From Rhodobacterales bacterium (lineage in GTDB: Bacteria; Pseudomonadota; Alphaproteobacteria; Rhodobacterales; Rhodobacteraceae): DNA of 64,000 nucleotides. Made by a program: the position numbers and the translations under genes. Location of the stretch: contig JBBQZP010000023.1 in NCBI GenBank assembly GCA_038207585.1, positions 323 to 64,322 of the forward strand, written 5' to 3'. This document shows, piece after piece, positions 36,314-50,669 of the stretch. Position 1 is the stretch's first letter; each line of letters starts with the position of its first letter. Under the pieces are notes generated by a model, which ran no database searches, had not been told where the DNA came from, and saw only the letters and a program-made list of their open reading frames with translations.

Positions 36314-37330
36314 ATGGCAGTGGCAAGCCTGAAGGATGTGGCGCAAACGGCCGGTGTGTCCGTGACAACGGTTTCACGCTTTCTGAACGGGTCACTTGAT
36401 CTGCCAGAGCGGACGCGCACGGCGGTCGAGCAGGCAATCCTTACGCTGAATTATCTGCCCAATCCCCATGCGCGCAGGCTTAGTCGGGGGCGGTCCGATA
36501 CGATCGGTCTGGTCATTCCCGATATTGCCACGCCGTTCTTTGCGACCCTCGTCGCAGCGGTCGAGGCCGAGGCAGACCGGCGCGGGTTGGGATTGACCCT
36601 GCATGCAACCCTGAACCGGCGGGAACGCGAACTTTCATATCTGCAAGCGGTCCGGCGCAATCAGGTTGACGGTCTGATCTTCGTGACGAACCATCCCGAT
36701 GACGGAACCCTTGCCGCCGCCATCAACGCCAGTGGTCAGGTGTTGATTCTGGATGAGGATGTGGCGGGAACGTCTGCTCCCAAGCTGTTTTGCGACAATG
36801 ATCAGGGCGGCTATCTGGCGGGGCGGCATCTGGCCGAAGCCGGGCATCGCCGGGTGCTGTTCATCGGCGGAGCCGACACCATGCTCAGCGGCAAGCGCCG
36901 GTTTGCCGGATTCCGGCGCGCGATGATCGAGGTTTGGGGCCAGGACGTTCAGATCGCACGTTATGAGGGCGAGTATCTGGCCGAATTCGGGCGGGTGGCG
37001 GCAAAACGCATGCTGGCCGAAGACCAGCGTCCGACCGCAGTTTTCGCAACCTCCGATGAAATCACGATCGGCGTGCTGGAAGTTCTGAACGCCGTGGGCA
37101 TGCGTGTGCCGCACGATCTTTCGCTTGTCGGTTTCGACGATGTCGGCCCGCTGCATCTTTTCGCACCCGCCGTGACAGCGGTGCGCCAGCCGGTCCGGGC
37201 GTTGGGCGTGCGTGCCCTTGCCCTGCTTCTGGATACCGACTGGACCAACCCCGCAAATCTTCCGTCAGAGGAGATACTGCCTGTCACCCTGATCACGCGG
37301 AATTCCGTTGCACCGCTGATCCGGTCCTGA
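36314..37330 (+). CDS. LacI-family transcriptional regulator
   Basis: MAVASLKDVAQTAGVSVTTVSRFLNG HTH followed by a sugar-binding fold. Confidence 0.85.
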   Translation: MAVASLKDVAQTAGVSVTTVSRFLNGSLDLPERTRTAVEQAILTLNYLPNPHARRLSRGRSDTIGLVIPDIATPFFATLVAAVEAEADRRGLGLTLHATLNRRERELSYLQAVRRNQVDGLIFVTNHPDDGTLAAAINASGQVLILDEDVAGTSAPKLFCDNDQGGYLAGRHLAEAGHRRVLFIGGADTMLSGKRRFAGFRRAMIEVWGQDVQIARYEGEYLAEFGRVAAKRMLAEDQRPTAVFATSDEITIGVLEVLNAVGMRVPHDLSLVGFDDVGPLHLFAPAVTAVRQPVRALGVRALALLLDTDWTNPANLPSEEILPVTLITRNSVAPLIRS

Positions 37331-37347
37331 ATAGCAACTTCCAACAG

Positions 37348-38316
37348 ATGGGACACAAAATGACCACGACAAAACTGACAGCGCTTTCACGGCGAGGCCT
37401 TGGCCTTGTTCTTGGCTCGGCCGTTCTTTTGGCGGCGGTGCCCGGCATGGCACAGGACAAAAAGACGTTCGCCCTTGTCCAGATCAACCAGCAGGCCCTG
37501 TTCTTCAACCAGATGAACGAAGGCGCGCAAAAGGCAGCGGATGCCGCCGGGGTAGACCTTGTGATCTTCAACGCCAACAACGATCCGGCGGCCCAGAACA
37601 GCGCCATCGAGACGTATATTCAGGAAGGTGTGGACGGCATCGCGATTGTGGCGATTGATGTGAACGGCATCATGCCGGCGGTCGATCAGGCGGTGGCGGC
37701 GGGTATTCCGGTTGTTGCCATTGACGCCATCCTGCCCGAAGACGGCAAGCAGTCGGCGGTGATCGGGGTAGATAACGGCAAGGCGGGTGCGGACCTTGGT
37801 GCCTATTTTGTCGAATACGCAAAGGGCGCTGGCGGCGCCAAGATCGGTGTCGTGGGTGCGCTGAATTCCTTTATCCAAAACTTGCGCAAGGATGGGTTCG
37901 AGGGTGTTCTGACAGGCGTTGAAGGCATCACCATGGCTGGCACCGTCGATGGCCAGAACGTGCAGGATACCGCACTGGCCGCGGCTGAAAACCTGATGAC
38001 GGCGAACCCCGACATGACCGCGATCTATGCCACCGGCGAACCGGCCCTGCTGGGTGCCGTGGCGGCAGTCGAAAGTCAGGGGCGGCAGGCCGATGTCAAG
38101 GTCTTTGGCTGGGATCTGACCGCATCGGCGGTGGCCGGAATTGACGCAGGTTATGTCGAGGCGGTGATCCAGCAAGACCCCGCAGGTATGGGCGGCGCTG
38201 CAGTTGACGCGCTTAAAACCATCACCGACGGCGGCACGGTTGAACGGAACATCGCGGTTCCCGTGACCATCGTGACCAAGGCCAATGTTGACGACTTCCG
38301 GTCCATGTTCAAATGA
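37348..38316 (+). CDS. monosaccharide ABC transporter substrate-binding protein
   Basis: Type-I PBP fold. The leader has an RR pair (LSRRGLGLVLGSAVLLAAVPGMA). The start may instead be the ATG at 37360. Confidence 0.8.
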   Translation: MGHKMTTTKLTALSRRGLGLVLGSAVLLAAVPGMAQDKKTFALVQINQQALFFNQMNEGAQKAADAAGVDLVIFNANNDPAAQNSAIETYIQEGVDGIAIVAIDVNGIMPAVDQAVAAGIPVVAIDAILPEDGKQSAVIGVDNGKAGADLGAYFVEYAKGAGGAKIGVVGALNSFIQNLRKDGFEGVLTGVEGITMAGTVDGQNVQDTALAAAENLMTANPDMTAIYATGEPALLGAVAAVESQGRQADVKVFGWDLTASAVAGIDAGYVEAVIQQDPAGMGGAAVDALKTITDGGTVERNIAVPVTIVTKANVDDFRSMFK

Positions 38317-39116
38317 CCGAAACGGCGCTTCACGCCGAAGCGCCCGCTGTGGGAGGGGGCAACCCCCTCCCGCACACGCGGGGGGCCGTGCCGCTGGTAT
38401 CGTTGCGGGGCATCAGCCTGACCTTCGGGTCGCATCAGGCCTTGCGGGGCGTTGATCTGGATGTGATGCCCGGCGAATGTCTGGGCCTGATCGGCGACAA
38501 TGCAGCCGGAAAATCGACCCTGTCCAAGGTGATGTCGGGCACCTACATTCCCGATGCCGGAACGATCCGTGTCGACGGCGAACCTGTGCGATTTTCGGGC
38601 CCGTCCGATGCCCGCGCCCGAGCCATCGAGATGGTATTTCAAGACCTGAGCCTGTGCGACCATGTCGATGTCGTGGGCAATCTTTTTCTGGGGCGTGAAC
38701 TGACTCGCGGCCCTTTTCTGGACCAGAAGCGCATGCTGACCGAGGGGCGGCAGATGCTGGACGCGCTGGAAATCCGCATCCCCCGCCTGACCGCCAAGGT
38801 TGAAAAGCTGTCGGGGGGCCAACGGCAGGCCATCGCCATCGCGCGGGCCGCCAGTTTTCAGCCGCGCGTGCTGATCATGGACGAGCCGACCTCGGCGCTT
38901 GCCGTGGCCGAGGTTGAGGCGGTTTTGGCCCTGATCAACCGGGTCAAGGCCAGGGGCGTGGGCGTGGTACTGATCACGCACCGCCTGCAGGATCTGTTCC
39001 GCGTCTGCGACCGGATTGCCGTGATGTATGAAGGCACCAAGGTCGCCGAACGCCAGATCGGCGAGACGAACCTGCAAGAACTGGTCGATCTGATTGTTGG
39101 CAAGGGGGCGCACTGA
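38313..39116 (+). CDS. sugar ABC transporter ATP-binding protein (single cassette)
   Basis: GDNAAGKST, LSGGQRQAIAIARA, LIMDEPTSAL. Overlaps the SBP stop by 4 nt. Confidence 0.85.
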   Translation: MTETALHAEAPAVGGGNPLPHTRGAVPLVSLRGISLTFGSHQALRGVDLDVMPGECLGLIGDNAAGKSTLSKVMSGTYIPDAGTIRVDGEPVRFSGPSDARARAIEMVFQDLSLCDHVDVVGNLFLGRELTRGPFLDQKRMLTEGRQMLDALEIRIPRLTAKVEKLSGGQRQAIAIARAASFQPRVLIMDEPTSALAVAEVEAVLALINRVKARGVGVVLITHRLQDLFRVCDRIAVMYEGTKVAERQIGETNLQELVDLIVGKGAH

Positions 39117-40117
39117 TGGCCGCCTATTCCGAACGCGCCAAGGGGTCTGCGTTGGCTGATTTCATTTCGGAGAACGCACAGGTGCTATCGATTGCGGTGT
39201 TCTTTGTGGCCTGCATGGTGCTGTTCAGCCTGCTGACATCCACCTTTCTTACCGCCGGGAACCTGCTGAACATCGTCCGGCAGGCGGCCCCGGTGCTGAT
39301 CGTCGCCGTGGCGATGACACTGGTGATCACCACGGCAGGCATCGATCTTTCGGTCGGGTCGACCGTGGCGCTGGTCAATGCCGTCGCGGCGATTGCGCTG
39401 GCGTCGGGGATGGGCTGGATCACCGTTCTTGTTCTGATGATGGTGCTGGGCGGGGTGATCGGGGCCATTCAGGGCTGGTTCATCGCCTATCAGGGCATCC
39501 CGGCCTTTATCGTCACCCTTGCCGGGCTGTCGATCCTGCGCGGCTATGCGCTGTATCTGACCGAAGGCTATTCGATCCCGATCACGGATGTGCCCGGCTT
39601 TTTCTGGCTGGGGCGCGGAACGCTTGCGGGCTTTCCGGTGCCCGCGCTGATCTCGATCCTGGTGGCGATCTTTGGGTTTGTCGTCATGGCGCGCACGCGC
39701 TATGGGCGGCAGGTCGTGGCTGTGGGCTCCAACATGGAGGCGGCGCGGCGCGTCGGCATGCCCGCGTTATGGACGGTAACATCGGTCTACATCGTGTCGG
39801 GTGTCGCCTGCGCCATTGCGGGCCTATTGATTGCGGCACGGCTGGGGTCGGGGTCATCCAACGCAGCGGTCGGTTTTGAACTGCAGGTCATTGCGGCCGT
39901 CGTTCTGGGCGGCACGTCGCTGATGGGGGGCAAGGCCAGCATGATCGGCACCGTTTTGGGCACGATGACCATTGCGGTTATCGGCAACGGGCTGATCCTT
40001 GTTCATATCTCGCCCTTCTTCACCCAGATCGTGACGGGGACGATCATCCTGCTGGCGATCTGGATGAACACCAAACTGTTCAGCGGTGGCTTTCGCTTTG
40101 GAAGGAAACCGAAATGA
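39116..40117 (+). CDS. sugar ABC transporter permease
   Basis: 333-aa polytopic protein with TAGIDLSVGS, RbsC-like. The start overlaps the preceding stop. Confidence 0.85.
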   Translation: MAAYSERAKGSALADFISENAQVLSIAVFFVACMVLFSLLTSTFLTAGNLLNIVRQAAPVLIVAVAMTLVITTAGIDLSVGSTVALVNAVAAIALASGMGWITVLVLMMVLGGVIGAIQGWFIAYQGIPAFIVTLAGLSILRGYALYLTEGYSIPITDVPGFFWLGRGTLAGFPVPALISILVAIFGFVVMARTRYGRQVVAVGSNMEAARRVGMPALWTVTSVYIVSGVACAIAGLLIAARLGSGSSNAAVGFELQVIAAVVLGGTSLMGGKASMIGTVLGTMTIAVIGNGLILVHISPFFTQIVTGTIILLAIWMNTKLFSGGFRFGRKPK

Positions 40118-41181
40118 CCACGGAACTGTCACCGGCGCATGTCGGGTCTGGTCTGGTGATGACGGTCAATGGCCCCATCAACAGCGCCGATCTTGGTGTG
40201 ACGCTGATGCACGAACACCTGCAAAACGATTGTTCCTGCTGGTGGAACGCGCCGAAAGACCCCGCGCGCCAGCATCTGGCAGAGGGGCCGGTGCGCATCG
40301 AAATCCTGTCCGAGTTGCGGCAAGACCCGTTTGTGAACAAGCACAACATCGCGCTGGACGAATTGGATCTGTGTATCGAGGAGATCGGGGCCTTTGCCAA
40401 GGCGGGCGGGCGCACGGTGGTGGACCCGACCTGCCGTGGCATCGGGCGTGACCCGGTGAAACTGCGCCGGATCGCGGCCGGGACGGGGTTGAACATCGTG
40501 ATGGGGGCGGGCTACTACCTTGCCTCGTCGATGCCGGGTGACGTGGCGCGGCTTTCGGTCGATGATATTGCCGATCAGATCGTGGCCGAGGCATTGCACG
40601 GCACGGATGGCACCGACGCGAAGATCGGCTTGATCGGGGAGATTGGCGTGTCGTCTGATTTCACGGCGGATGAGGAAAAATCGCTGCGCGGGGCTGCGCG
40701 CGCGCAGGTGCGCACCGGGCTGCCGCTGATGGTGCATCTGCCGGGCTGGTTCCGCCTTGGCCACCGCGTGCTGGACATGGTGGAGGCAGAGGGGGCCGAT
40801 CTTGCCCACACCGTTCTGTGCCACATGAACCCGTCGTTCGATGACTGGGACTATCAGCGCACCATCGCGGAACGCGGCGCGTTCATCGAATTCGACATGA
40901 TCGGGATGGATTACTTCTATGCCGATCAGCAGGTCCAATGCCCCGGCGATGACGATGTGGCGCGCGCAATCCTGCGGCTGGCCGATGCGGGGCATCTTGA
41001 CCGGATTTTGTTGTCGCAAGACGTGTTCATCAAGATGATGCTGACGCGCTATGGCGGAAACGGCTATGCCTTTGTGATACGCCACTTTCTGCCCCGTCTG
41101 GCGCGGCACGGAATGGATGCCGCGTCCTGCGACAGCCTGTTGACCACCAATCCGCGGCGCGTCTTTGATGCGGCTGTTTAA
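40114..41181 (+). CDS. phosphotriesterase-related protein (PHP/PTE amidohydrolase family, likely lactonase-type)
   Basis: GVTLMHEHL metal-binding motif near the N-terminus, (beta/alpha)8 length and later conserved His/Asp positions (MVHLP…, CHMN…, SQD). Confidence 0.8.
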   Translation: MTTELSPAHVGSGLVMTVNGPINSADLGVTLMHEHLQNDCSCWWNAPKDPARQHLAEGPVRIEILSELRQDPFVNKHNIALDELDLCIEEIGAFAKAGGRTVVDPTCRGIGRDPVKLRRIAAGTGLNIVMGAGYYLASSMPGDVARLSVDDIADQIVAEALHGTDGTDAKIGLIGEIGVSSDFTADEEKSLRGAARAQVRTGLPLMVHLPGWFRLGHRVLDMVEAEGADLAHTVLCHMNPSFDDWDYQRTIAERGAFIEFDMIGMDYFYADQQVQCPGDDDVARAILRLADAGHLDRILLSQDVFIKMMLTRYGGNGYAFVIRHFLPRLARHGMDAASCDSLLTTNPRRVFDAAV

Positions 41182-41202
41182 GTTGCGAGGAAGGGAATTG
41201 CC

Positions 41203-41970
41203 ATGACGACCAAGGTACTTCTGGTAGGCGAAAGCTGGGTGTCTTCGGCCACTCATTACAAGGGCTTTGACCAGTTCGGCAGCGTCACCTTCCATCTGGG
41301 CGCCGAGCCGTTGGTGGCAGCACTGAAGGGAACAGAATTCGATCTGACCTATATGACCGCCCATGACGCGGTCGAGAATTTCCCGTTCGAGATGGAAGGC
41401 CTGGATGCCTATGACGTGATCATCCTGTCCGACATCGGGGCGAATTCGTTCCTGCTGCCGCCCGCCGTGTGGCTTCGGTCGCAGACCGTGCCAAACCGGC
41501 TGCGCCTGATCAAGGCATGGGTGGAACGTGGCGGCGGGCTTTTGATGGTGGGCGGGTATTTCAGTTTTCAGGGCATCGACGGCAAGGCACGCTGGCGCAA
41601 CACGCCGGTCGAGGATGTGTTGCCCGTCACCTGCCACCCTTGGGATGACCGGGTGGAAATGCCCGAAGGCAGCGTGGCCGAGGTGCTGGAACCGGGTCAC
41701 CCCGTGATGGCGGGGCTGGATGGTGACTGGCCGTTTGTTCTGGGCGTGAACGAGGTGGAAGTCCGCCCCGGCGCGCAGGTTCTTGCGCGGATACCCCTGG
41801 CTCAGGGCGGCCATCCGCTGCTGGTTCTGGGCGGGTTCGGCAAGGGGCGGACGGCGGCGTGGACATCCGACATCGGGCCGCACTGGCTGTCACCCGCCTT
41901 TTGCGCATGGCACGGCTATGGCACGCTTTGGAAAAACCTCTTGGGCTGGCTGGCGCATGGCCGTGGCTGA
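41203..41970 (+). CDS. GATase1-like (putative glutamine amidotransferase-like) cytoplasmic protein of unknown function
   Basis: MTTKVLLVGESW…HYKGFDQF…YDVIILSDIGANSF…GGGLLMVGGYFSFQG resembles the uncharacterised class-I-amidotransferase-like family seen in rhizobial sugar loci. I could not point to a clear catalytic Cys. Confidence 0.5.
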   Translation: MTTKVLLVGESWVSSATHYKGFDQFGSVTFHLGAEPLVAALKGTEFDLTYMTAHDAVENFPFEMEGLDAYDVIILSDIGANSFLLPPAVWLRSQTVPNRLRLIKAWVERGGGLLMVGGYFSFQGIDGKARWRNTPVEDVLPVTCHPWDDRVEMPEGSVAEVLEPGHPVMAGLDGDWPFVLGVNEVEVRPGAQVLARIPLAQGGHPLLVLGGFGKGRTAAWTSDIGPHWLSPAFCAWHGYGTLWKNLLGWLAHGRG

Positions 41971-41979
41971 CAGCTGCTG

Positions 41980-42861
41980 TCACGGCTCGCTCAGGATGGC
42001 CGCCAGTTCTGCCTGCGTCGGAAGGGCCGCACCTGTGCCCGGACGTGACACGGTAATGGCCGCCGCCGCCGCCGCATGGCGCAGGGCGCGGGCATCCATG
42101 GGCTTGCCCCGAAGCGCGGATGACGCCAGAGCGGTCGCCATGAAACAATCACCGGCACCGGTGGTATCAACGACGGTGCAGGGCTGCGCCGGAACGGTCA
42201 CGCTGCCATCCGGCGTGATCAGGTGTGCCCCCGCCGACCCCAGCGTCAGCACGATCTGCGCAACGCCAGCCGCCCCAAGTGCCGCAGTACCGCCAAGGGT
42301 TGCGGCTTCGCTTTCGTTCAGGAAAACCAGATCGACCAACGGCCAAAGCTGCGCAAAGAACGGACGCAGCGGCGAGGGGTTCAGTGCCGTCTGCATCCCC
42401 ATCGCCCGCGCCCGGCGAAACGCGGCAAGCGTGGCGTCAGCCGAAAGGTTGCCTTGCATCACCAGCAGATCGCCGGGGCGCGCCCCCGCCATCACGCTGT
42501 GCACCGTTGCCTCTGTCAGGCCCGTCGCGGCAGCATTGGTAGTGATGATCGCGTTGTCACCTGACGGGGTGCGCAGGATGATCGACAGATCACTTGCCAC
42601 CCCCTCGATTGGCACAAAATCAACCGTTACCGGTTCGGCTGCCAGCCTGCGGCGGATATCCTCTGCCCGGCTGTCCGTGCCCACGGGTGCGGCAAACCGG
42701 CAGTCCAACCCCGCACGCCCCAGCACGATCGCCTGGTTGGCCCCCTTGCCCCCCAGATCAATCTGGCTTGCTGTGCCGTGGATCGACGTGCCACGCACCG
42801 GCAGGTCGTCGACACTCAGCGCCTCGTCCAGTGCCACGTTTCCAATCACAAAGGCGCGCAT
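41980..42861 (-). CDS. PfkB-family carbohydrate kinase (ribokinase-like)
   Basis: Start trimmed to the ATG at 42861. GGKGANQA and DTTGAGDCF motifs. Confidence 0.85.
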   Translation of the reverse strand: MRAFVIGNVALDEALSVDDLPVRGTSIHGTASQIDLGGKGANQAIVLGRAGLDCRFAAPVGTDSRAEDIRRRLAAEPVTVDFVPIEGVASDLSIILRTPSGDNAIITTNAAATGLTEATVHSVMAGARPGDLLVMQGNLSADATLAAFRRARAMGMQTALNPSPLRPFFAQLWPLVDLVFLNESEAATLGGTAALGAAGVAQIVLTLGSAGAHLITPDGSVTVPAQPCTVVDTTGAGDCFMATALASSALRGKPMDARALRHAAAAAAITVSRPGTGAALPTQAELAAILSEP

Positions 42862-44080: not shown

Positions 44081-45490
44081 ATGAGTCTGGATTTCAAAAA
44101 GCTGGACGCTTTCGCACCACTGGATGAGCAACGCGATACCTATCCGGAACGCTATTCTCCCGTCGAACTTGAATTTCCACTTTTCGGAGACTTCAGACCG
44201 TTCAGCGCCGATCCGCAAGCGCCGGCTGATGGTGACGCAATCGAGGCACCGCCGCTTCACTGCTATGCGATCGTGGATGCCGGGAGGATCGCGCAATTTG
44301 ACGGGCCGCAATCGGTGGCTCCGACCCCCTGCGAAAGCCTTTTCTTCGGAGAGGCCGCGACAGAGCTTTCCGACGTCGCCCCGTATATTCTGCAACTGTC
44401 TCCGGATGATCGTTTCTTACAACGTCTGATGACACAAAGCGACAACGCATGGGATCATTGGGATCGCGCGCCCGCCGTTTATCTGCGGACCAGCGCATCA
44501 CCGGGCGAACTTGTCCGGCATTTCCGCAGCTTCGTTCGGGTGCAGGACCCCGAGGGAAAGTGGTTCTATTTCCGCTTCTGGGAGCCGAAAAGCCTGCTTG
44601 CCGTCTTGCGTGTTCTTGCTGATCATCCATCTGATCTTGCGCGGTTCCTTTTCTTGCGTGATGGGACGCCAATCCACAGTTTCATCGTGCCGACACCCTC
44701 TGAGACCTGGGTTGTGAAGAACGCCATGGCCGAACAGCCGGAGCGCAAGCCGTTCGTTCTGCGCGCGGCCTACCGGCAGGCGTTCGATGCAAATGTCGAA
44801 GACAGATTTGCTGCAGAATTCGCCCAAAGCCTGATCACTTCGGCCCCCAGGCAGGCCGCGGCACTCGGTATTTCCGAGGCGGCACCCATCGCAGCGATGA
44901 TCCGGCAGATCGTGTCTGACCTTGCCCCGCATGGATTTGAGCGGCGAAGCGATCTGGCGCGCCTTGCGTCCTGCGCGCTTTTCTTCGGGACCAATCTCTT
45001 TCGCGACCCGCGCCATTCCGGGTGGGCCGAGTCTCATCTCACGAAAGCGCGTTTTCATGCGGTCAGCGCCAAGCGTTTTGAAGAAGTGCTGACGAGCGGC
45101 CCTCTTTTCGTGCTGGTCAGCGGTGCAGCGGGGACCGTCAAGGCACGCTCTGCACTGCAGGGCGCGTTTGCCACGACGGATTCGCTTGCGGTCTGGTTGG
45201 GGCGGCTGCTGCGGCCGGACTGGGGCTTTTCCAATCAGACGCAGGTCAACGCCTTCATCCAGTTGTGCCACGACCAGCAAATCAAGGCCGGCCTGCTGGC
45301 TCTAGGCTCGGATACGCTGAAAATTCGGGCGCATTATGTTCTGGCCTGTCTTTATGGGCCACACTTTCTGGTTGACCCATTGCACGACAGAATGCGATCC
45401 GTGTTCACTGAGTTAGCGCATTTCGAGGATTTTATTTTGTCAGAGATGAACCGTCGCGCTGACGCGCTGGACCGCCCTGCAAATGGCTGA
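44081..45490 (+). CDS. DUF4123 domain protein (T6SS adaptor/chaperone family, Tap-1/TEC-like) with ~250-aa C-terminal extension
   Basis: CYAIVDAGRIAQF…SLFFGEAATELSDVAPYILQL…APAVYLRTSASPGELVRHFRSFVRVQDPEGKWFYFRFWEPKSLLAVL follows the DUF4123 consensus (yaiLDaa…lf.g…l…gP.Lv.l…s…l…hLR…v…g…fRfyDPrvl). The stop overlaps the next ATG (ATGGCTGA). Confidence 0.8.
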   Translation: MSLDFKKLDAFAPLDEQRDTYPERYSPVELEFPLFGDFRPFSADPQAPADGDAIEAPPLHCYAIVDAGRIAQFDGPQSVAPTPCESLFFGEAATELSDVAPYILQLSPDDRFLQRLMTQSDNAWDHWDRAPAVYLRTSASPGELVRHFRSFVRVQDPEGKWFYFRFWEPKSLLAVLRVLADHPSDLARFLFLRDGTPIHSFIVPTPSETWVVKNAMAEQPERKPFVLRAAYRQAFDANVEDRFAAEFAQSLITSAPRQAAALGISEAAPIAAMIRQIVSDLAPHGFERRSDLARLASCALFFGTNLFRDPRHSGWAESHLTKARFHAVSAKRFEEVLTSGPLFVLVSGAAGTVKARSALQGAFATTDSLAVWLGRLLRPDWGFSNQTQVNAFIQLCHDQQIKAGLLALGSDTLKIRAHYVLACLYGPHFLVDPLHDRMRSVFTELAHFEDFILSEMNRRADALDRPANG

Positions 45491-47189
45491 TAGAAGCCAG
45501 GGTGAATTCGCCGCCACACAAGCGGAAGCATCCTCGCAGCACGGACAGGCCGTCGGCGGGGGCTGCGTGCGGTGCCACGAGGGCAACTGGGTTCATGTCC
45601 GCTATGAATACACAGAAGGCGATCCGGTTACGGATGCCACCTTCGTTGTGCAGACCCCGAACGGCGGCAAGCCAGGCGGGACGGTCCTGCATGAAGGCGT
45701 TGTCAGCATCGGCCCCAGTGCGTCACACAATTTTGTGCATGTCGATCTGGGTGGCCACGATGGCCCGGTCGAGGTTTTCTTTTTTGATGATCCGACCGAG
45801 CCCGTGCCCTTTACCGAACCTGCGCCGGTCAAGGATGAACGGGGCTGGCTGGAATGGGCCGCCGATGGCGTCGTGTCGGCGGGCCGCGCAGTTGGCGATG
45901 GTGCAGCATGGGTCGGCAACGTCGCGATGGGCGATTTCAACGACGATATGACCACCGGGCAGATTGTGACGAACGCCATTGTCACCGCCGTGCCCGGCAT
46001 TGATCAGGTTGCCGATGCGCGCGATCTGGTTGCCAATGGCAAAGCCCTGCTCTGGGATCGACGCTATACGGAAATTGGCGTTTGGGTCGGGGTATTTGCC
46101 TGCCTGATCGGTCTTGTTCCCTCGCTCGGGTCGCTGGCAAAGGGAGTGATCAAGATCATCTGGAAAAACGCGGGCGAGATGGGCCGCCTGCTGGTCTACA
46201 TCAACCGGGCCTTGCACAGGACCGGAATTGCGCGGATCAACGGCTACCGCTTCGTCAAGGAACTGGGCGAAGGGCTTGCCGGCAAAGTGGCCGAGGTGGC
46301 GGCCAAATTTGATGAGTTTCTGGACGATTGCGCCGCCCAAGCGCGCCGGTTCGGCATGACCGACCTGTTGGCCAGCATCGAGACAGTGCGCGGCATGGCG
46401 CGGCAGAAGTTTGATGAAGTTGCCGCAGAAATCAGCGCCCGTATCGCGCGCGGCATCGGCCAATACGCAACCAAGGCCTGGCGCCTGCTGCCGCACCAAA
46501 GCATCGTCGTGCGCCGCGCGACTGTGATGGCCCGCCAAAGCTTTGAAAGCTGGCAGGAAACGATGGCCCGGATCGGCTTTGACAAGAACGCGCTTGAGGC
46601 CGGGGCAGAGCCGATTGATGATGCGACAAAGCGGTGGATGGTCGACAGCGGCGTTCGGTCGGCGCGCTGGCGCACTGAGCTTCTGGCCGACCCCAAACTG
46701 ACACCCGAACTGCGAACATTTCTGCAACAAGACGTAGGCGGCCGGGCCACAGACATGTTGAAGACGTTCTCGACCAAACCGACTGTCGTGAACTTTTCGG
46801 AGTCGCCGCGGACTCTGTATCGCGTAATAGATGGCCCGGAAAAGATTAACGGATCGTTCTGGAGCCGGGCCGAACCTCCATCCGACGAGGCGGCATGGCG
46901 ATCGCGCGACGCCGTCCTGAACGGATGGAATGAGGGCGGAGCCTATGTCTCAGCCGCAGTTCCGCCGCCGCCTGCTGGCTTGGTCGGCACGATTGCGCCA
47001 CAAATCTCCGATGTTGATCCGACGAAAATGCTGCGAGGCGGCGGCGAGCAGGTTTACATCCCCGGTCGCCCCGCTATTCCGGAATCCCAGATGCGGCAAT
47101 ATCTTCATACCGACTGGAACGACCGTGCGCCTGTGTCTGCGACTCGGGCGACTTCGCAGGCCGGTCATGCAGGGGAATGCGATCTATGA
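45483..47189 (+). CDS. putative DUF4123-dependent secreted effector/toxin (568 aa): unassigned N-terminal region, hydrophobic segment, ~130-aa C-terminal toxin-like domain
   Basis: Translationally coupled to the DUF4123 gene upstream and to a small ORF downstream. GDFNDDMTTGQIVTNAIVTAVPGIDQVADARDL is followed by the hydrophobic stretch IGVWVGVFACLIGLVPSLGSLAKGVI. The C-terminus is LYRVIDGPEKINGSFWS…VGTIAPQ…GGGEQVYIP. Confidence 0.6.
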   Translation: MADRSQGEFAATQAEASSQHGQAVGGGCVRCHEGNWVHVRYEYTEGDPVTDATFVVQTPNGGKPGGTVLHEGVVSIGPSASHNFVHVDLGGHDGPVEVFFFDDPTEPVPFTEPAPVKDERGWLEWAADGVVSAGRAVGDGAAWVGNVAMGDFNDDMTTGQIVTNAIVTAVPGIDQVADARDLVANGKALLWDRRYTEIGVWVGVFACLIGLVPSLGSLAKGVIKIIWKNAGEMGRLLVYINRALHRTGIARINGYRFVKELGEGLAGKVAEVAAKFDEFLDDCAAQARRFGMTDLLASIETVRGMARQKFDEVAAEISARIARGIGQYATKAWRLLPHQSIVVRRATVMARQSFESWQETMARIGFDKNALEAGAEPIDDATKRWMVDSGVRSARWRTELLADPKLTPELRTFLQQDVGGRATDMLKTFSTKPTVVNFSESPRTLYRVIDGPEKINGSFWSRAEPPSDEAAWRSRDAVLNGWNEGGAYVSAAVPPPPAGLVGTIAPQISDVDPTKMLRGGGEQVYIPGRPAIPESQMRQYLHTDWNDRAPVSATRATSQAGHAGECDL

Positions 47190-47659
47190 AAGCTGAAACC
47201 GCGATCTTTGTCGATGCGATTGCCGCCATGCGCGATCACGCACGTCAGCTTGCAACGGATGAGATGATCCTTGTCGACAATACTCCGTTGCCGGATCTGA
47301 TCCAGCAGCGCTATGGGCTGTCATCGCAGAAGCGTCCCGCCAATCTGATTGCGAAGTTGCACGAAAGCGCCCTGTCGGCAGAGCGTTGGGCCGGGCATGT
47401 GGAAACCGCGTTGCACAGTGCAGATACGTTGTCGGCGCTGGCCTACATATCCTCGGCGATGACGTCGGTTGATCGCATCATGGCCGACGGCGGCCCCTAC
47501 GTTGAACCGGGCCTGTTCCAATGGCTCTCGTCACGGCTTGATCCGATCTATTGGCGGGCCGTGCCGGTGTTCAACCTGGGTTCCGAACCACCGGACAATA
47601 GCAGAATCGACGCATACTCCCGTTGGCTTGCGACACATCCGAACCCGTGGTCTGCCTGA
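47186..47659 (+). CDS. candidate cognate immunity protein (no family recognised)
   Basis: The ATG at 47186 overlaps the effector TGA (ATGA). An alternative ATG lies at 47177. ~157 aa with no signal peptide or TM segment. The call rests on position immediately 3' of the toxin domain. Confidence 0.5.
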   Translation: MKAETAIFVDAIAAMRDHARQLATDEMILVDNTPLPDLIQQRYGLSSQKRPANLIAKLHESALSAERWAGHVETALHSADTLSALAYISSAMTSVDRIMADGGPYVEPGLFQWLSSRLDPIYWRAVPVFNLGSEPPDNSRIDAYSRWLATHPNPWSA

Positions 47660-47684: not shown

Positions 47685-47880
47685 CTGGTCGGACGAATTG
47701 CGCCGCAGCACTTTCCGAAACATCCCGACCAGATGTTGAAGGGTGGCGGCGAACAAGTCTGACTTTCCAGTCTGCGAACCGATGCAGTGTCCCAATATCG
47801 GGTCAAGCAATACTGGCATACCGACTGGAACGACCGCACACCCGTTTCCGCCACCCGGGCGACCTCGCACGGGTACTCTG
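47685..47880 (+). pseudogene. orphan, degenerate copy of the effector 3' end (toxin C-terminal remnant) with in-frame TGA at 47760-47762
   Basis: LVGRIAPQHFPKHPDQMLKGGGEQV*LSSLRTDAVSQYRVKQYWHTDWNDRTPVSATRATSH aligns with effector residues LVGTIAPQISDVDPTKMLRGGGEQVYIPGRPAIPESQMRQYLHTDWNDRAPVSATRATSQ. In the best DNA block (47106-47159 vs 47817-47870) I count 44/54 identical. Confidence 0.65.
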
Positions 47881-47900
47881 GCAACCTTAAACGCGATCGG

Positions 47901-50132
47901 TCAAACCCCGATTGCGGTCGAGAAGTTGTCGGGAATGAATTCGAGGCTATCGATCCGCAGGGGTTCTCCGCCGCCGAAGTCATCGCCGATCAGCGAGACC
48001 TGGTCACCCGCCGAAATGGAAAGATCCCGGATAATATGCGACGTCGCCGTCTTGCTGTTGGCATTGGCGCTTCCCAGTTCCTCGTCCCATCTCCATGATT
48101 CAACAATCTTTCCGTTCACCAGAAGCGAAAGCTTGCTGTTTCCGTCATTCTCGTCGAAATAGTTGACACGCACATCATAGGTGCCGGACTTTCCGGCGAA
48201 ATCAGCATCGGCACGATGCTCGCCCGTGCCATCGCGTCTTATGACGGCACCGTTCTTGGCCGCTTTGAGGCTTTCCGTCACAAAGCCGCTCAGATCAAAA
48301 CTTTCCGCTTCCAGACTGATATACTCGCCGATGGCTGCAACAGTGGTTTTTGTCGGTGCAGGCGTCACGGTATCTGCAACACTGTCAAACGTGAGCTTGT
48401 CAATCCGCAACGCTTCGCCTTTGTTCGCGACACCCGTCAGCCTGATCTCATCACCTGCGGCCAGTTTCAGCCCACTGATGACTTTGGTGCTGGCGGTCAG
48501 GTCATTGGCGTTGTTGCTGCCAAGCTTCAGGTCCCACTTCCAGTTCGCGACCTCTTTGCCGTTCACCGTCACCAGCAGCGTGCTGACACCATCGGCCTCG
48601 TCAAAGTAGTCGATCGACAGATCGTATTTACCTGCCGCACCCTTGAACGTCATACCGGCTTCGTTGATTCCATCCGTGCTGCCCTTTATCACCTTGTCGC
48701 TGGACGCCGCGCCGACTTTTTCTGTCTTGAAGCCTTGCGTCAGGATAAGGGATTCAGCTTCCACGGTGATCGTTTTGTCTGGTCCCGTCGTTGTGGCGAC
48801 CGGGCCGGAAATATCGCTTCCCACAAGGATCGCCCCGGGCTGCGGCACGTCAACCGTCACTGGGGATGCAGGCTGCCCGGTTGGTTTCGGCGCGGCGGTC
48901 TGCACGTTAAAGCCATCAAGCAGGCCGTTGATATAGTCTTCGATATTTGCATAGCCGTCGCCATCCGCGTCCTTCTGGGCATCTGCAACGGTCACATTCG
49001 ATCCGATCAGGCGCTCGTACTGATCAGGAATACCGTCTTTGTCGGTATCCAGCAGCGCACTTTGCGCTTTTGTCGTAAGATAGCCGCCCACCTGGTCTTG
49101 GGAGTCGATAATTTTCCCAGTGCCATTCAGTACAGTTTTGATGATGCGTGCATCTATTGCGTCAAGCCCGCCTGCGCTCGCTCCAGCGTTAGAAAGCACA
49201 TGGTCAACCACATCGGCGGTATCAATCACGGTTTTTGTGGCTGGGTCGAAGACATATTTACTTTGCAGTTTCGACACGGCGCTTCCGCCGATTTCGCCAA
49301 TGTTCCCTGAGGCGTAGTAGGCAGTCGACGCAGAGCCAGACTCAAAACGGATCGCTTCGCGCCCTGTGGAATCCGCGCCCGCGATGAAGACGTTGTTGAT
49401 TACATGACCGGTCGAGCCTTCATTGCTCGCGTAACCGCTGTTGCCCCAGTTGTAGACCACATTGTTTATGAACTCGATCTGCTTTGCATCGTCCTTGATC
49501 GTAGCGTTGCGGAACTTGTTGTGAGCAAGAAGATTGCCGACGATGCTTACATTGGAGCTTCCGTCGCCAACCAGCAAACCCATGCTGTGCTCTCCCTTGG
49601 AATGAATTGAATCATTAAGAGCTTCGGCAATAATATTGTTCGAGAACGTGATGTTGCTGTTATCGCCCCAAGACGACAAGGCTTCGTCCAGCGACCACGA
49701 AATGGAGTTGCTGTCGATCACCACGTTCTTGATTGTCTCGCCGGATTTTCCAACCGAGATGCCATCGCGGTCATCGGGCTTGTCGCCGTCCGGGTCATCG
49801 CCCGGACGCACGTGAACACCCCGGATAATCACTTCACTTTCCACAACCCGCAAGCGTGCCCCGGCAACCGTGATGCCGCCCGGCGCCGTCTGACCAGCGA
49901 CGGTCACGTCGCCGTTAATCTGGATCTCATCCTTGAGGTTTATGATGCCCCCGACTTCGAAAATGACAATCCGGGGCTGATCAAGGACTTCCAACGCCCA
50001 ACGTAGCGAACCGACGCCTGAGTCATTCAGATTGGTGACTTTAACCACCTCACCACCTCGGCCGCCTTGCGTTTCGGCACCAAAGCCCACTGCACCTTGG
50101 AAGGCCAACAGATTTGAATTCGTGATTGTCAT
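47901..50132 (-). CDS. pectate-lyase-like right-handed beta-helix protein with TSP3-type Ca-binding repeats and two C-terminal CBM6/35-like domains
   Basis: Start trimmed to the ATG at 50132 (MTITNSNLLAFQGAVGFGAETQGGRGGEVVKVTNLNDSGVGSLRWAL, as in PL1-type pectate lyases). Repeated NN-I/V-x beta-helix rungs, DTDKDGIPD…DADGDGYANIEDYINGL, then two ~130-aa repeats of the EAES…G-Y-D…NG…IDxLxF type. Confidence 0.7.
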   Translation of the reverse strand: MTITNSNLLAFQGAVGFGAETQGGRGGEVVKVTNLNDSGVGSLRWALEVLDQPRIVIFEVGGIINLKDEIQINGDVTVAGQTAPGGITVAGARLRVVESEVIIRGVHVRPGDDPDGDKPDDRDGISVGKSGETIKNVVIDSNSISWSLDEALSSWGDNSNITFSNNIIAEALNDSIHSKGEHSMGLLVGDGSSNVSIVGNLLAHNKFRNATIKDDAKQIEFINNVVYNWGNSGYASNEGSTGHVINNVFIAGADSTGREAIRFESGSASTAYYASGNIGEIGGSAVSKLQSKYVFDPATKTVIDTADVVDHVLSNAGASAGGLDAIDARIIKTVLNGTGKIIDSQDQVGGYLTTKAQSALLDTDKDGIPDQYERLIGSNVTVADAQKDADGDGYANIEDYINGLLDGFNVQTAAPKPTGQPASPVTVDVPQPGAILVGSDISGPVATTTGPDKTITVEAESLILTQGFKTEKVGAASSDKVIKGSTDGINEAGMTFKGAAGKYDLSIDYFDEADGVSTLLVTVNGKEVANWKWDLKLGSNNANDLTASTKVISGLKLAAGDEIRLTGVANKGEALRIDKLTFDSVADTVTPAPTKTTVAAIGEYISLEAESFDLSGFVTESLKAAKNGAVIRRDGTGEHRADADFAGKSGTYDVRVNYFDENDGNSKLSLLVNGKIVESWRWDEELGSANANSKTATSHIIRDLSISAGDQVSLIGDDFGGGEPLRIDSLEFIPDNFSTAIGV
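47931..48773 (-). repeat. tandem duplication of a ~130-aa carbohydrate-binding-module-like domain inside the lyase-like gene
   Basis: ITVEAESLILTQGF…GKYDLSIDYFDEADGVSTLLVTVNGKEVANWKWDLKLGSNNAN…ALRIDKLTF aligns with ISLEAESFDLSGF…GTYDVRVNYFDENDGNSKLSLLVNGKIVESWRWDEELGSANAN…PLRIDSLEF. Coordinates are approximate. Confidence 0.6.
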
Positions 50133-50669
50133 GCTCTTCAGGTTTCCTATTCTGTGACGATACCGCTCGTTCTCGAAGATTGGATATCCGTCGAATTCCC
50201 GAAGCGCATGGCGAAAATGTGGCAGCAAGGTGAAGCAAGTAAGAAACCGCTGATCGCCGCAGCCAAATTGTGTACAGTTCGGCACAAATGCACCGACATA
50301 ATTTCGATCGGCTGGAAAGCTCCTAAGTTTTGATCGTTCTGGCAATTTGTTGCCGTCCGCCATTTGCTGATGGGCAGGCCTGCTCCAATGGCTTGAGAAT
50401 CGACCGTAGTCATAGCGGATCGGAAATTCGCAAGCCGCCCGCCCTACGCAAGCCGGTTGCTGCAAAATGGGGCATGTGTGCGCAGGCCTGGGACGGAAGC
50501 CATCCCGGCGCGGCTAAGCCTGATTTTTTTCTGGCCGGGCATGGAACAATCCGGCATATTGATCAGGCTATTGAGCAGAAGAACAAGTTTTTTGCACGAT
50601 TCTGAATAGAAGTTGCCGCAGTAAGGCCTGCGCGTTTCAGTGGACGTTTTTGACAGAAAGGTCTTTGGC

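Follow-up and report, generated by a model that had tools for sequence, protein, structure and literature searches.

In a 64,000-nucleotide (nt) stretch of a Rhodobacterales genome (contig JBBQZP010000023.1; the whole stretch is called the window below), three co-directional open reading frames (ORFs) at positions 44081-47659 very probably make up an orphan type VI secretion system (T6SS) effector module, in which a Tap adaptor, a cargo effector joining a FIX domain to an NAD(P)+ glycohydrolase (NADase)-like domain, and an immunity protein are encoded one after the other. An earlier note on this DNA, made from the sequence alone, had proposed an interbacterial adaptor/effector/immunity cassette, and this proposal is well supported by the DUF4123 domain of ORF1, the VgrG- and T6SS-linked relatives of ORF2, the NADase fold predicted for its C-terminus and the linked, fast-diverging third gene. 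The note's further suggestion, that the effector family is undescribed or its loading non-canonical, has lost most of its ground, since the three reasons given for it (a missing spike gene, an unusually long chaperone and an unplaceable effector N-terminus) mostly dissolve: each component belongs to a known kind, there is no new loading arrangement, and the cassette is an ordinary orphan module. Its genes, together with the domain of the first, are:

44081-45490, + strand: ORF1, Tap/DUF4123 adaptor, 469 amino acids (aa)
44261-44623, + strand: DUF4123 domain of ORF1, residues 61-181
45483-47189, + strand: ORF2, predicted FIX-class T6SS cargo effector, 568 aa
47186-47659, + strand: ORF3, candidate cognate immunity protein, 157 aa

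Gene layout and the adaptor

The overlaps of stop and start codons reported earlier are present in the sequence, the ORF1 stop and the ORF2 start lying together within 45483-45490 and the ORF2 stop and the ORF3 start sharing ATGA at 47186-47189. An alternative ATG at 47177 would give an ORF3 product of 160 aa; the 157-aa form starting at 47186 is preferred as the likely one, because this ATG has a Shine-Dalgarno sequence (AGGGGA) 9 nt upstream and because an ATGA overlap is the rule in the loci homologous to the cassette. The GC content and the codon-position GC of the cassette are the same as those of the neighbouring genes, and the three ORFs are probably transcribed as one operon.

ORF1 passes the Pfam profile search for DUF4123 (PF13503) with 75.4 bits against a cut-off of 25.8 (E 5.5e-21), as the earlier note had anticipated, and NCBIfam returns a weak Tla1 match, while conservation of the C-terminal ~290 aa is confined to the adaptor's own subfamily. 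In published Tap (DUF4123) proteins, a conserved N-lobe binds the C-terminal helix-turn-helix of VgrG and a variable helical C-lobe binds the effector (Colautti et al. 2024, PMC11582642), and the position of the DUF4123 domain and the family-specific C-terminal region of ORF1 would, as far as the sequence tells, fit this bilobed design. Accordingly, the 469 aa that had been taken as unusual for a chaperone need be no anomaly, since the published architecture would account for them; the adaptors of the family, collected with custom hidden Markov models and located directly upstream of full-length effectors, measure 444-622 aa. A full-length ORF1 homologue (29-38% identity) precedes every full-length effector homologue, the adaptor gene being adjacent to and co-directional with the effector gene in the cassette as in 15/15 related loci.

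This arrangement recalls the known Tap/Tec modules (V. cholerae Tap-1/TseL, A. tumefaciens Tap-1/Tde1, P. aeruginosa Tap6 and Tap14; PMC11582642), where the DUF4123 gene also lies directly upstream of the cargo effector and is translationally coupled to it, and the family-specific C-terminal region of ORF1 is consistent with an effector-binding lobe. The difference lies in the spike: vgrG is found upstream in 5/5 of the DUF4123 neighbourhood classes surveyed (PMC11582642), whereas there is none in the 64-kb window, nor within 10 kb in the 15 related loci. Moreover, a FIX effector class is missing from the five classes of that survey.

The predicted effector: family, FIX domain and toxin-like domain

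Five features can be delimited in ORF2:

45585-45788, + strand: N-terminal beta-sandwich, residues ~35-102 (five strands in the AlphaFold2 model, with a predicted local distance difference test score, pLDDT, of 65-86; near-invariant residues in the alignment)
45897-46160, + strand: FIX domain, residues ~139-226 (W..GDFN.DMTTGQI...P.IDQV.D.RD..AN ... IGLVPSLGSLAKG)
46074-46136, + strand: hydrophobic helix in FIX, residues 198-218 (Kyte-Doolittle 19-residue maximum of 2.07 at residue 198)
46773-47117, + strand: predicted TNT-like NAD(P)+ glycohydrolase palm domain, residues ~431-545 (model and Foldseek)
47118-47186, + strand: conserved 23-residue tail, residues 546-568 (...HTDWN...ECDL; alignment)

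Neither ORF2 nor ORF3 matches any model of Pfam, NCBIfam or PADLOC, and the 46 close database clusters of ORF2 are all devoid of annotation. Marine Alphaproteobacteria (Ruegeria, Litoreibacter, Thalassospira, Celeribacter, Thioclava, Sulfitobacter) account for most of these clusters and a Nitrincola/Osedax symbiont for one, while a scan of species-representative genomes recovered homologues in Paracoccus, Yoonia and Primorskyibacter too. Searched against 1.84 billion representative proteins, the ORF2 family profile retrieves 1,219 clusters (50% identity) at E<=1e-3; in most of them the match is limited to profile positions ~20-330 or ~120-330, and the C-terminus is a different one. Classification of the retrieved proteins with sub-profiles distinguished the helical module followed by another C-terminus (66 proteins), the helical module followed by the same toxin domain (49), the beta-sandwich and helical module followed by another C-terminus (32), and the complete ORF2-type architecture (37). 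In other relatives, the C-terminus is Ntox15 (a T6SS DNase of the Tde type) or an ADP-ribosyl-cyclase-like domain (Rib_hydrolayse). Such interchangeable C-termini are a polymorphic-toxin architecture.

The first ~430 residues of the effector, which the earlier note could not place in any family, contain a FIX domain; FIX has no Pfam model, hence the empty domain search. This identification was obtained through a Vibrio penaeicida protein of 443 aa, to which ORF2 is similar over a region of dense identity (residues 143-226 vs. 44-127; BLASTP E 2e-25). The V. penaeicida gene directly follows vgrG, its product bears the PoNe motif (KGLYGE ... GIDGIY ... ETK), and downstream lie a PoNi_N/PoNi_C immunity gene and, nearby, a PAAR gene. 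FIX was defined on V12_14465, the Vibrio parahaemolyticus effector that founded the class, where it spans positions 43-121 (Jana et al. 2019, PMC6688995). Judged from its PoNe motif and PoNi gene, the V. penaeicida protein has, at the level of sequence, the architecture of V12_14465 and is a verified FIX-PoNe effector; ORF2, by homology, carries the same published T6SS marker domain. After FIX, a conserved helical extension continues to about residue 330 (nt 46472).

ORF2 is tied to the T6SS by its FIX homology, by fusions of its module to VgrG and by relatives encoded after vgrG in T6SS clusters. In P0120 and P0190, the FIX/helical module is fused to the C-terminus of a whole VgrG (Phage_GPD and DUF2345), the fusion reaching through the toxin domain in P0120. 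In Ralstonia solanacearum megaplasmids (92 records), a relative of ORF2 directly follows vgrG inside the core T6SS cluster; one of them, CJO83_19720, matches ORF2 residues 116-545 (E 6e-34) and stands directly after vgrG within tssJKL / hcp / tssBC / tssEFG. The relatives in Massilia and the metagenomic P0044 are likewise located directly after vgrG, with neither adaptor nor N-terminal beta-sandwich. In P0144, the FIX/helical module (profile match at residues 677-888) lies downstream of an eCIS_core domain (PF13699), so that, considering the VgrG fusions as well, the module is not confined to adaptor-loaded cargo effectors.

ORF2 shares with the described FIX effectors (V12_14465; PMC6688995) a FIX region of ~85 residues with a hydrophobic helix, N-terminal to an interchangeable toxin, as well as an immunity gene immediately downstream; FIX is also found fused to VgrG there, the upstream gene is commonly DUF4123 or vgrG, and the host genomes have a T6SS. 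It differs from them by its C-terminus, of NADase fold instead of PoNe, AHH or another nuclease, by an extra ~105-residue N-terminal region comprising the beta-sandwich and CxxCH, by its conserved C-terminal ECDL tail, and by the lack of an adjacent vgrG, hcp or PAAR gene. Several other classes were considered and rejected by regular-expression scans: the conserved CxxCH-GNW[IV]H motif that precedes the beta-sandwich suggested the WHIX class, yet ORF2 does not show WHxxxH in a bipartite domain of ~450 aa, and MIX (hRxGhhYhh and flanking motifs), prePAAR (AARxxDxxxH), Rhs (PxxxxDPxGL), lipase and PAAR motifs are absent, Pfam also finding no PAAR or Rhs.

The toxin-like module that the earlier note had seen at the C-terminus exists, but as a domain of ~115 residues (~431-545) plus the conserved 23-residue tail. 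In the AlphaFold model of the whole ORF2 (pLDDT 72), Tne2, a T6SS NADase of Pseudomonas protegens, is the only meaningful neighbour in the PDB. Modelled alone, residues 395-568 reach a pLDDT of 86.4 and a predicted template modelling (pTM) score of 0.79, and the best 16 Foldseek matches of this model in the PDB are all TNT-like NAD(P)+ glycohydrolases, i.e., Tne2 (probability 1.00, template modelling score 0.66), Tse6 (0.99 and 0.94), Serratia Rhs1-CT (0.98) and fungal NADases (Neurospora, Aspergillus, Fusarium), with later matches having a probability of at most 0.06. TNT-like NADases have a palm fold, very low sequence identity, an NAD-binding set of Arg, aromatic and Gln residues, and mutually unrelated immunity proteins (PMC10539506). 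In the family alignment, the candidate active-site residues of ORF2, R447 (LYRV strand), F459/W460/S461 and Q523 (GGGEQ), are invariant or nearly so. From this confidently predicted structure, we assign the C-terminal domain of ORF2 to the TNT-like NADase fold, and the modelled domain would hydrolyse NAD(P)+.

The likeness to Tne2, Tse6 (Tne1) and Serratia Rhs1-CT extends from the predicted palm fold (probabilities of 0.94-1.00), with candidate Arg, aromatic and Gln residues in order, to the small, putatively cytoplasmic immunity protein encoded downstream and the presumed cytoplasmic target. It does not extend to the sequence, where no similarity is detectable, nor to delivery: these three are specialised PAAR/Rhs effectors with Eag chaperones, whereas ORF2 is a PAAR-less cargo with a DUF4123 adaptor. 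ORF3 has no relation to the Tne groups' immunity proteins, which are themselves mutually unrelated.

The N-terminal beta-sandwich of ORF2 is not present in the vgrG-adjacent relatives of Massilia, Ralstonia and Vibrio. CxxCH (C28-x2-C31-H32, nt 45564-45578) and the ECDL tail (nt 47175-47186) are near-invariant and co-occur in the full-length family, and both are missing from the vgrG-adjacent relatives; the two might bind a metal or contact each other within the protein, and, more speculatively, the beta-sandwich with CxxCH and the tail could together give a metal-bridged closed state recognised by the adaptor. The beta-sandwich was also considered as the element bound by Tap, an idea that is weakened because some beta-sandwich and FIX relatives have a small unrelated ORF upstream in place of DUF4123. 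At three loci (L015:1906-2358, L016:7295-7660, L029:2284-2664), this ORF of 120-150 aa without Pfam family overlaps the start of the effector gene, and could encode a different, undescribed accessory protein.

The third gene and the effector fragment downstream

ORF3, described earlier as small and soluble, is indeed a 157-aa soluble protein with no signal peptide and no Pfam family, and the lack of a signal peptide fits immunity to a toxin acting in the cytoplasm. A single-sequence search with ORF3 found only two matches among 5.8 billion proteins. Even so divergent, it aligns over its full length with the third genes of other loci, with invariant F8, L76 and a C-terminal N-P-W, and a gene of this family comes directly after the effector gene in 15/15 loci with a full-length or near-full-length effector homologue. 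Identity to the cassette decreases from 52-63% for the effector and 46-59% for the toxin domain to 32-38% for the adaptor and 22-30% for the third gene. Extra copies of the ORF3 family, tandem or partial, occur at loci of Thioclava, Paracoccus, Celeribacter and Nitrincola (tandem ones in L010, L003, L024 and L025). The family profile is weakly similar to the four-helix bundle of cytochrome b562 (E 1e-4 to 4e-3), to be taken as a hint of fold and not as homology. Altogether, ORF3 is probably the cognate immunity protein, which would neutralise the toxin.

Where a vgrG-adjacent relative has this NADase-like domain, the next gene encodes an unrelated protein of ~314-320 aa that is conserved between Ralstonia and Massilia and stands outside the ORF3 family (L027:13470-14414, L030:4665-5624 and the downstream ORFs of L020-L022). 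One toxin fold may accordingly have two families of immunity proteins, this being the second.

Immediately after ORF3 lies one further feature:

47685-47885, + strand: vestigial copy of the effector 3' end (~residues 500-560), disrupted by a frameshift and by a stop codon in frame at 47760-47762

This fragment, which corresponds to about the last 60 codons, resembles the effector with a tblastn E-value of 4.9e-18 and 54% protein identity, including a 63-nt direct repeat at 79%. Equivalent effector 3' fragments exist in two Paracoccus loci (L003 and L014), an immunity paralogue following in L003. Together, these fragments suggest a recurrent replacement of the toxin-3'/immunity unit. Orphan arrays of Rhs and CdiA systems show a similar pattern, left behind when the resident toxin-3'/immunity unit is displaced by an incoming one: the active pair has a shortened, displaced toxin 3' fragment downstream of it, and relatives have extra immunity genes; the cassette differs from them by having no Rhs or CdiA scaffold and by its short (40-70 codons) and decayed fragments.

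Genomic setting, alternative readings and meaning

Absence of T6SS core, vgrG, PAAR and hcp genes from the window, as claimed in the earlier note, was confirmed by two approaches. Pfam scans of 23 window ORFs (all those of at least 500 aa and all neighbours within ~10 kb) found no T6SS gene, and phmmer searches of 786 six-frame window segments with Ralstonia and Phaeobacter TssA/B/C/E/F/G/H/J/K/L, Hcp and two VgrGs, plus a Vibrio PAAR, gave no match at E<=1, whereas TssF/G/K, VgrG and PAAR were picked up by these queries in loci serving as controls. The missing spike gene is not a sign of novelty, however, but the norm for the subfamily: the stand-alone triplet of adaptor, effector and ORF3-family gene is found in 15/15 loci of the full-length family, and the Pfam-annotated neighbourhoods (Ruegeria, Litoreibacter, Celeribacter, Nitrincola) have no vgrG, hcp or PAAR within 10 kb. 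Furthermore, strains carrying the full-length family are listed as FIX-containing with 9-10 of the 11 T6SS core COGs, i.e., Celeribacter ethanolicus TSPH2, Thioclava sp. SK-1, Thalassospira sp. MCCC 1A01428 and TSL5-1, Yoonia maritima YPC211, Paracoccus sp. 4-2 and many Epibacterium (Tritonibacter) mobile strains (PMC6688995 supplementary data 3). A T6SS has been reported in Tritonibacter mobilis, where strain AK171 possesses an imp cluster together with hcp and two copies of vgrG (PMC11225332); a TssC search aimed at the Tritonibacter replicon carrying the homologue gave no Tritonibacter record among the matches listed.

Upstream of the cassette are transporters, a P-type ATPase and a sugar-catabolism operon (PfkB, phosphotriesterase-like, GATase1-like, BtpA), and downstream a beta-helix protein and an exopolysaccharide cluster (GT4 glycosyltransferases, sulfotransferases, Wzy). 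The beta-helix gene (47901-50465, minus strand) converges on the cassette from the edge of the exopolysaccharide cluster; it lies in a stretch of lower GC content (0.53-0.56) and encodes a right-handed, pectate-lyase-like protein of 854 aa with two C-terminal tandem repeats of ~125 aa. On the other side, the flanking region 37000-42500 (sugar ABC transporter / phosphotriesterase-like / GATase1-like) is ~74-76% identical at the nucleotide level to plasmids of Paracoccus marcusii and Rhizobium. A plasmid or chromid of an alphaproteobacterium may be the origin of the window; the cassette itself had no megablast match among plasmids. Homologous cassettes are often found beside insertion sequence (IS) elements, integrases, recombinases, RepB/ParB or ParDE (L024 12753-19023, L025 12805-15141, L015 677-1876, L029 4566-5692), none of which was found within ~10 kb of the cassette in the window. 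These neighbours fit horizontal mobility, and the cassette is probably mobile in this way.

Several observations weigh against reading the cassette as a Tap-FIX-NADase-immunity module of a T6SS. No T6SS gene lies within the 64 kb of the window, and a scan of the cassette for promoters and terminators revealed none above shuffled expectation. The FIX identity of ORF2 relies on transitive homology and on matching lists of host strains, and in the available part of the FIX protein table the one Thalassospira MCCC 1A01428 entry is a 90-aa protein from a contig other than that of the family locus in this strain (PMC6688995), so that the strain-level match supports FIX membership without proving that the listed proteins are the homologues. 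The toxin was assigned from a predicted fold, for which the Foldseek E-values are only 3e-3 to 1e-1, and R447, the aromatic residue and Q523, which sit on predicted strands in the expected order, were matched to the NADases by that order. Moreover, ORF2 has no match at E<=1 in Pfam, TNT included, and its family profile hits no NADase at E<=10 among PDB sequences, only noise; lacking any sequence match to solved NADases or to Pfam TNT, it would form a separate NADase sequence group. Finally, ORF3 is similar neither to Pfam families nor to known immunity proteins.

Part of these observations could also be understood if the cassette were a stranded remnant in a host without compatible T6SS, persisting as an addiction-like toxin/antidote pair or for the protection that ORF3 gives against the effectors of neighbours. 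The window without T6SS genes would agree with this, as would the IS elements, integrases or recombinases beside homologous loci, which suggest horizontal arrival, and the decayed effector fragment adjoining the cassette together with the disrupted effector genes of the two Paracoccus loci indicates that loci of this type do erode. Yet all those hosts of homologues that appear in the published list have 9-10 of the 11 T6SS core genes (PMC6688995 supplementary data 3). Here, the three ORFs are intact and keep the family-invariant residues, candidate catalytic ones included, and even the adaptor gene, useless without a spike, is intact and conserved over its full length, which makes a remnant unlikely.

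Another route of action has still less in its favour. P0144, with the module after an eCIS_core domain, would evoke an extracellular contractile injection system (eCIS), and NAD+ depletion, being a common anti-phage strategy, an intracellular abortive-infection toxin. Both are highly improbable, given that relatives either form one protein with VgrG or are encoded within T6SS clusters, that none of the three proteins has a PADLOC defence match, that the Pfam-scanned window ORFs include no eCIS or phage-tail gene, and that DUF4123 adaptors are known in T6SS loading only (PMC11582642). As for the chemistry, a palm fold with another activity, e.g., an ADP-ribosyltransferase (ART) acting on protein or RNA, deserves mention because NADases and ARTs have related folds and have Arg / Ser-aromatic / Gln-Glu motifs in common, and because a report from 2026 describes a FIX-Rhs effector whose ART domain targets RNA (PMC13324451); in the ORF2 sequence, E522-Q523 and S461 could mimic an R-S-E arrangement. 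Since 16/16 significant structural neighbours are glycohydrolases, with no ART in the list, we consider this alternative to have a small chance of being correct.

The orphan Tap-FIX-NADase-immunity module would then operate as follows. Secretion would take place through a T6SS of the source organism, presumably on a spike encoded elsewhere: the conserved N-lobe of ORF1 would attach to the helix-turn-helix at the C-terminus of a VgrG whose gene lies at another place in the genome, and the family-specific helical C-lobe of ORF1 would hold ORF2. After firing, the FIX/helical module, with its strongly hydrophobic helix, may help the toxin to leave the spike or to reach the target cytoplasm, where the TNT-like palm domain would hydrolyse NAD(P)+ and growth would stop. 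ORF3 would act as a cytoplasmic immunity protein blocking the toxin in the producer and its sister cells, and the decayed effector 3' fragment after ORF3 would be the trace of a past toxin-3'/immunity replacement by recombination. A more speculative idea, which we put forward with considerable reserve, is that FIX is a post-firing translocation module, instead of or besides a spike-loading tag, whose invariant hydrophobic helix would carry cytoplasm-acting toxins across the target inner membrane. This idea would fit the retention of FIX in VgrG-fused proteins, where loading is not needed, its presence after an eCIS_core domain, its association with cytoplasm-acting toxins (nucleases, NADase, ART), and the delegation of loading to a dedicated Tap adaptor in the ORF2 subfamily.

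In the literature searched, we found no description of this combination of components, of the NADase identity of this FIX C-terminus, of the ORF3 immunity family, or of the N-terminal beta-sandwich with CxxCH and the paired ECDL tail. For one FIX C-terminus of unknown function, the analysis proposes a likely activity, the depletion of NAD(P)+, and a family of putative cognate immunity proteins, and the known T6SS NADase effectors would gain a cargo format that lacks PAAR and depends on Tap. The helical module with FIX is very widespread, as its 1,219 clusters attest, and since no curated model covers it, effectors of this type escape annotation in marine Alphaproteobacteria, Ralstonia and Massilia. 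Lastly, the compact, spike-independent triplet suits the question of FIX function, open since 2019, and is a convenient system for studying the way in which a Tap adaptor selects a VgrG encoded at a distance.

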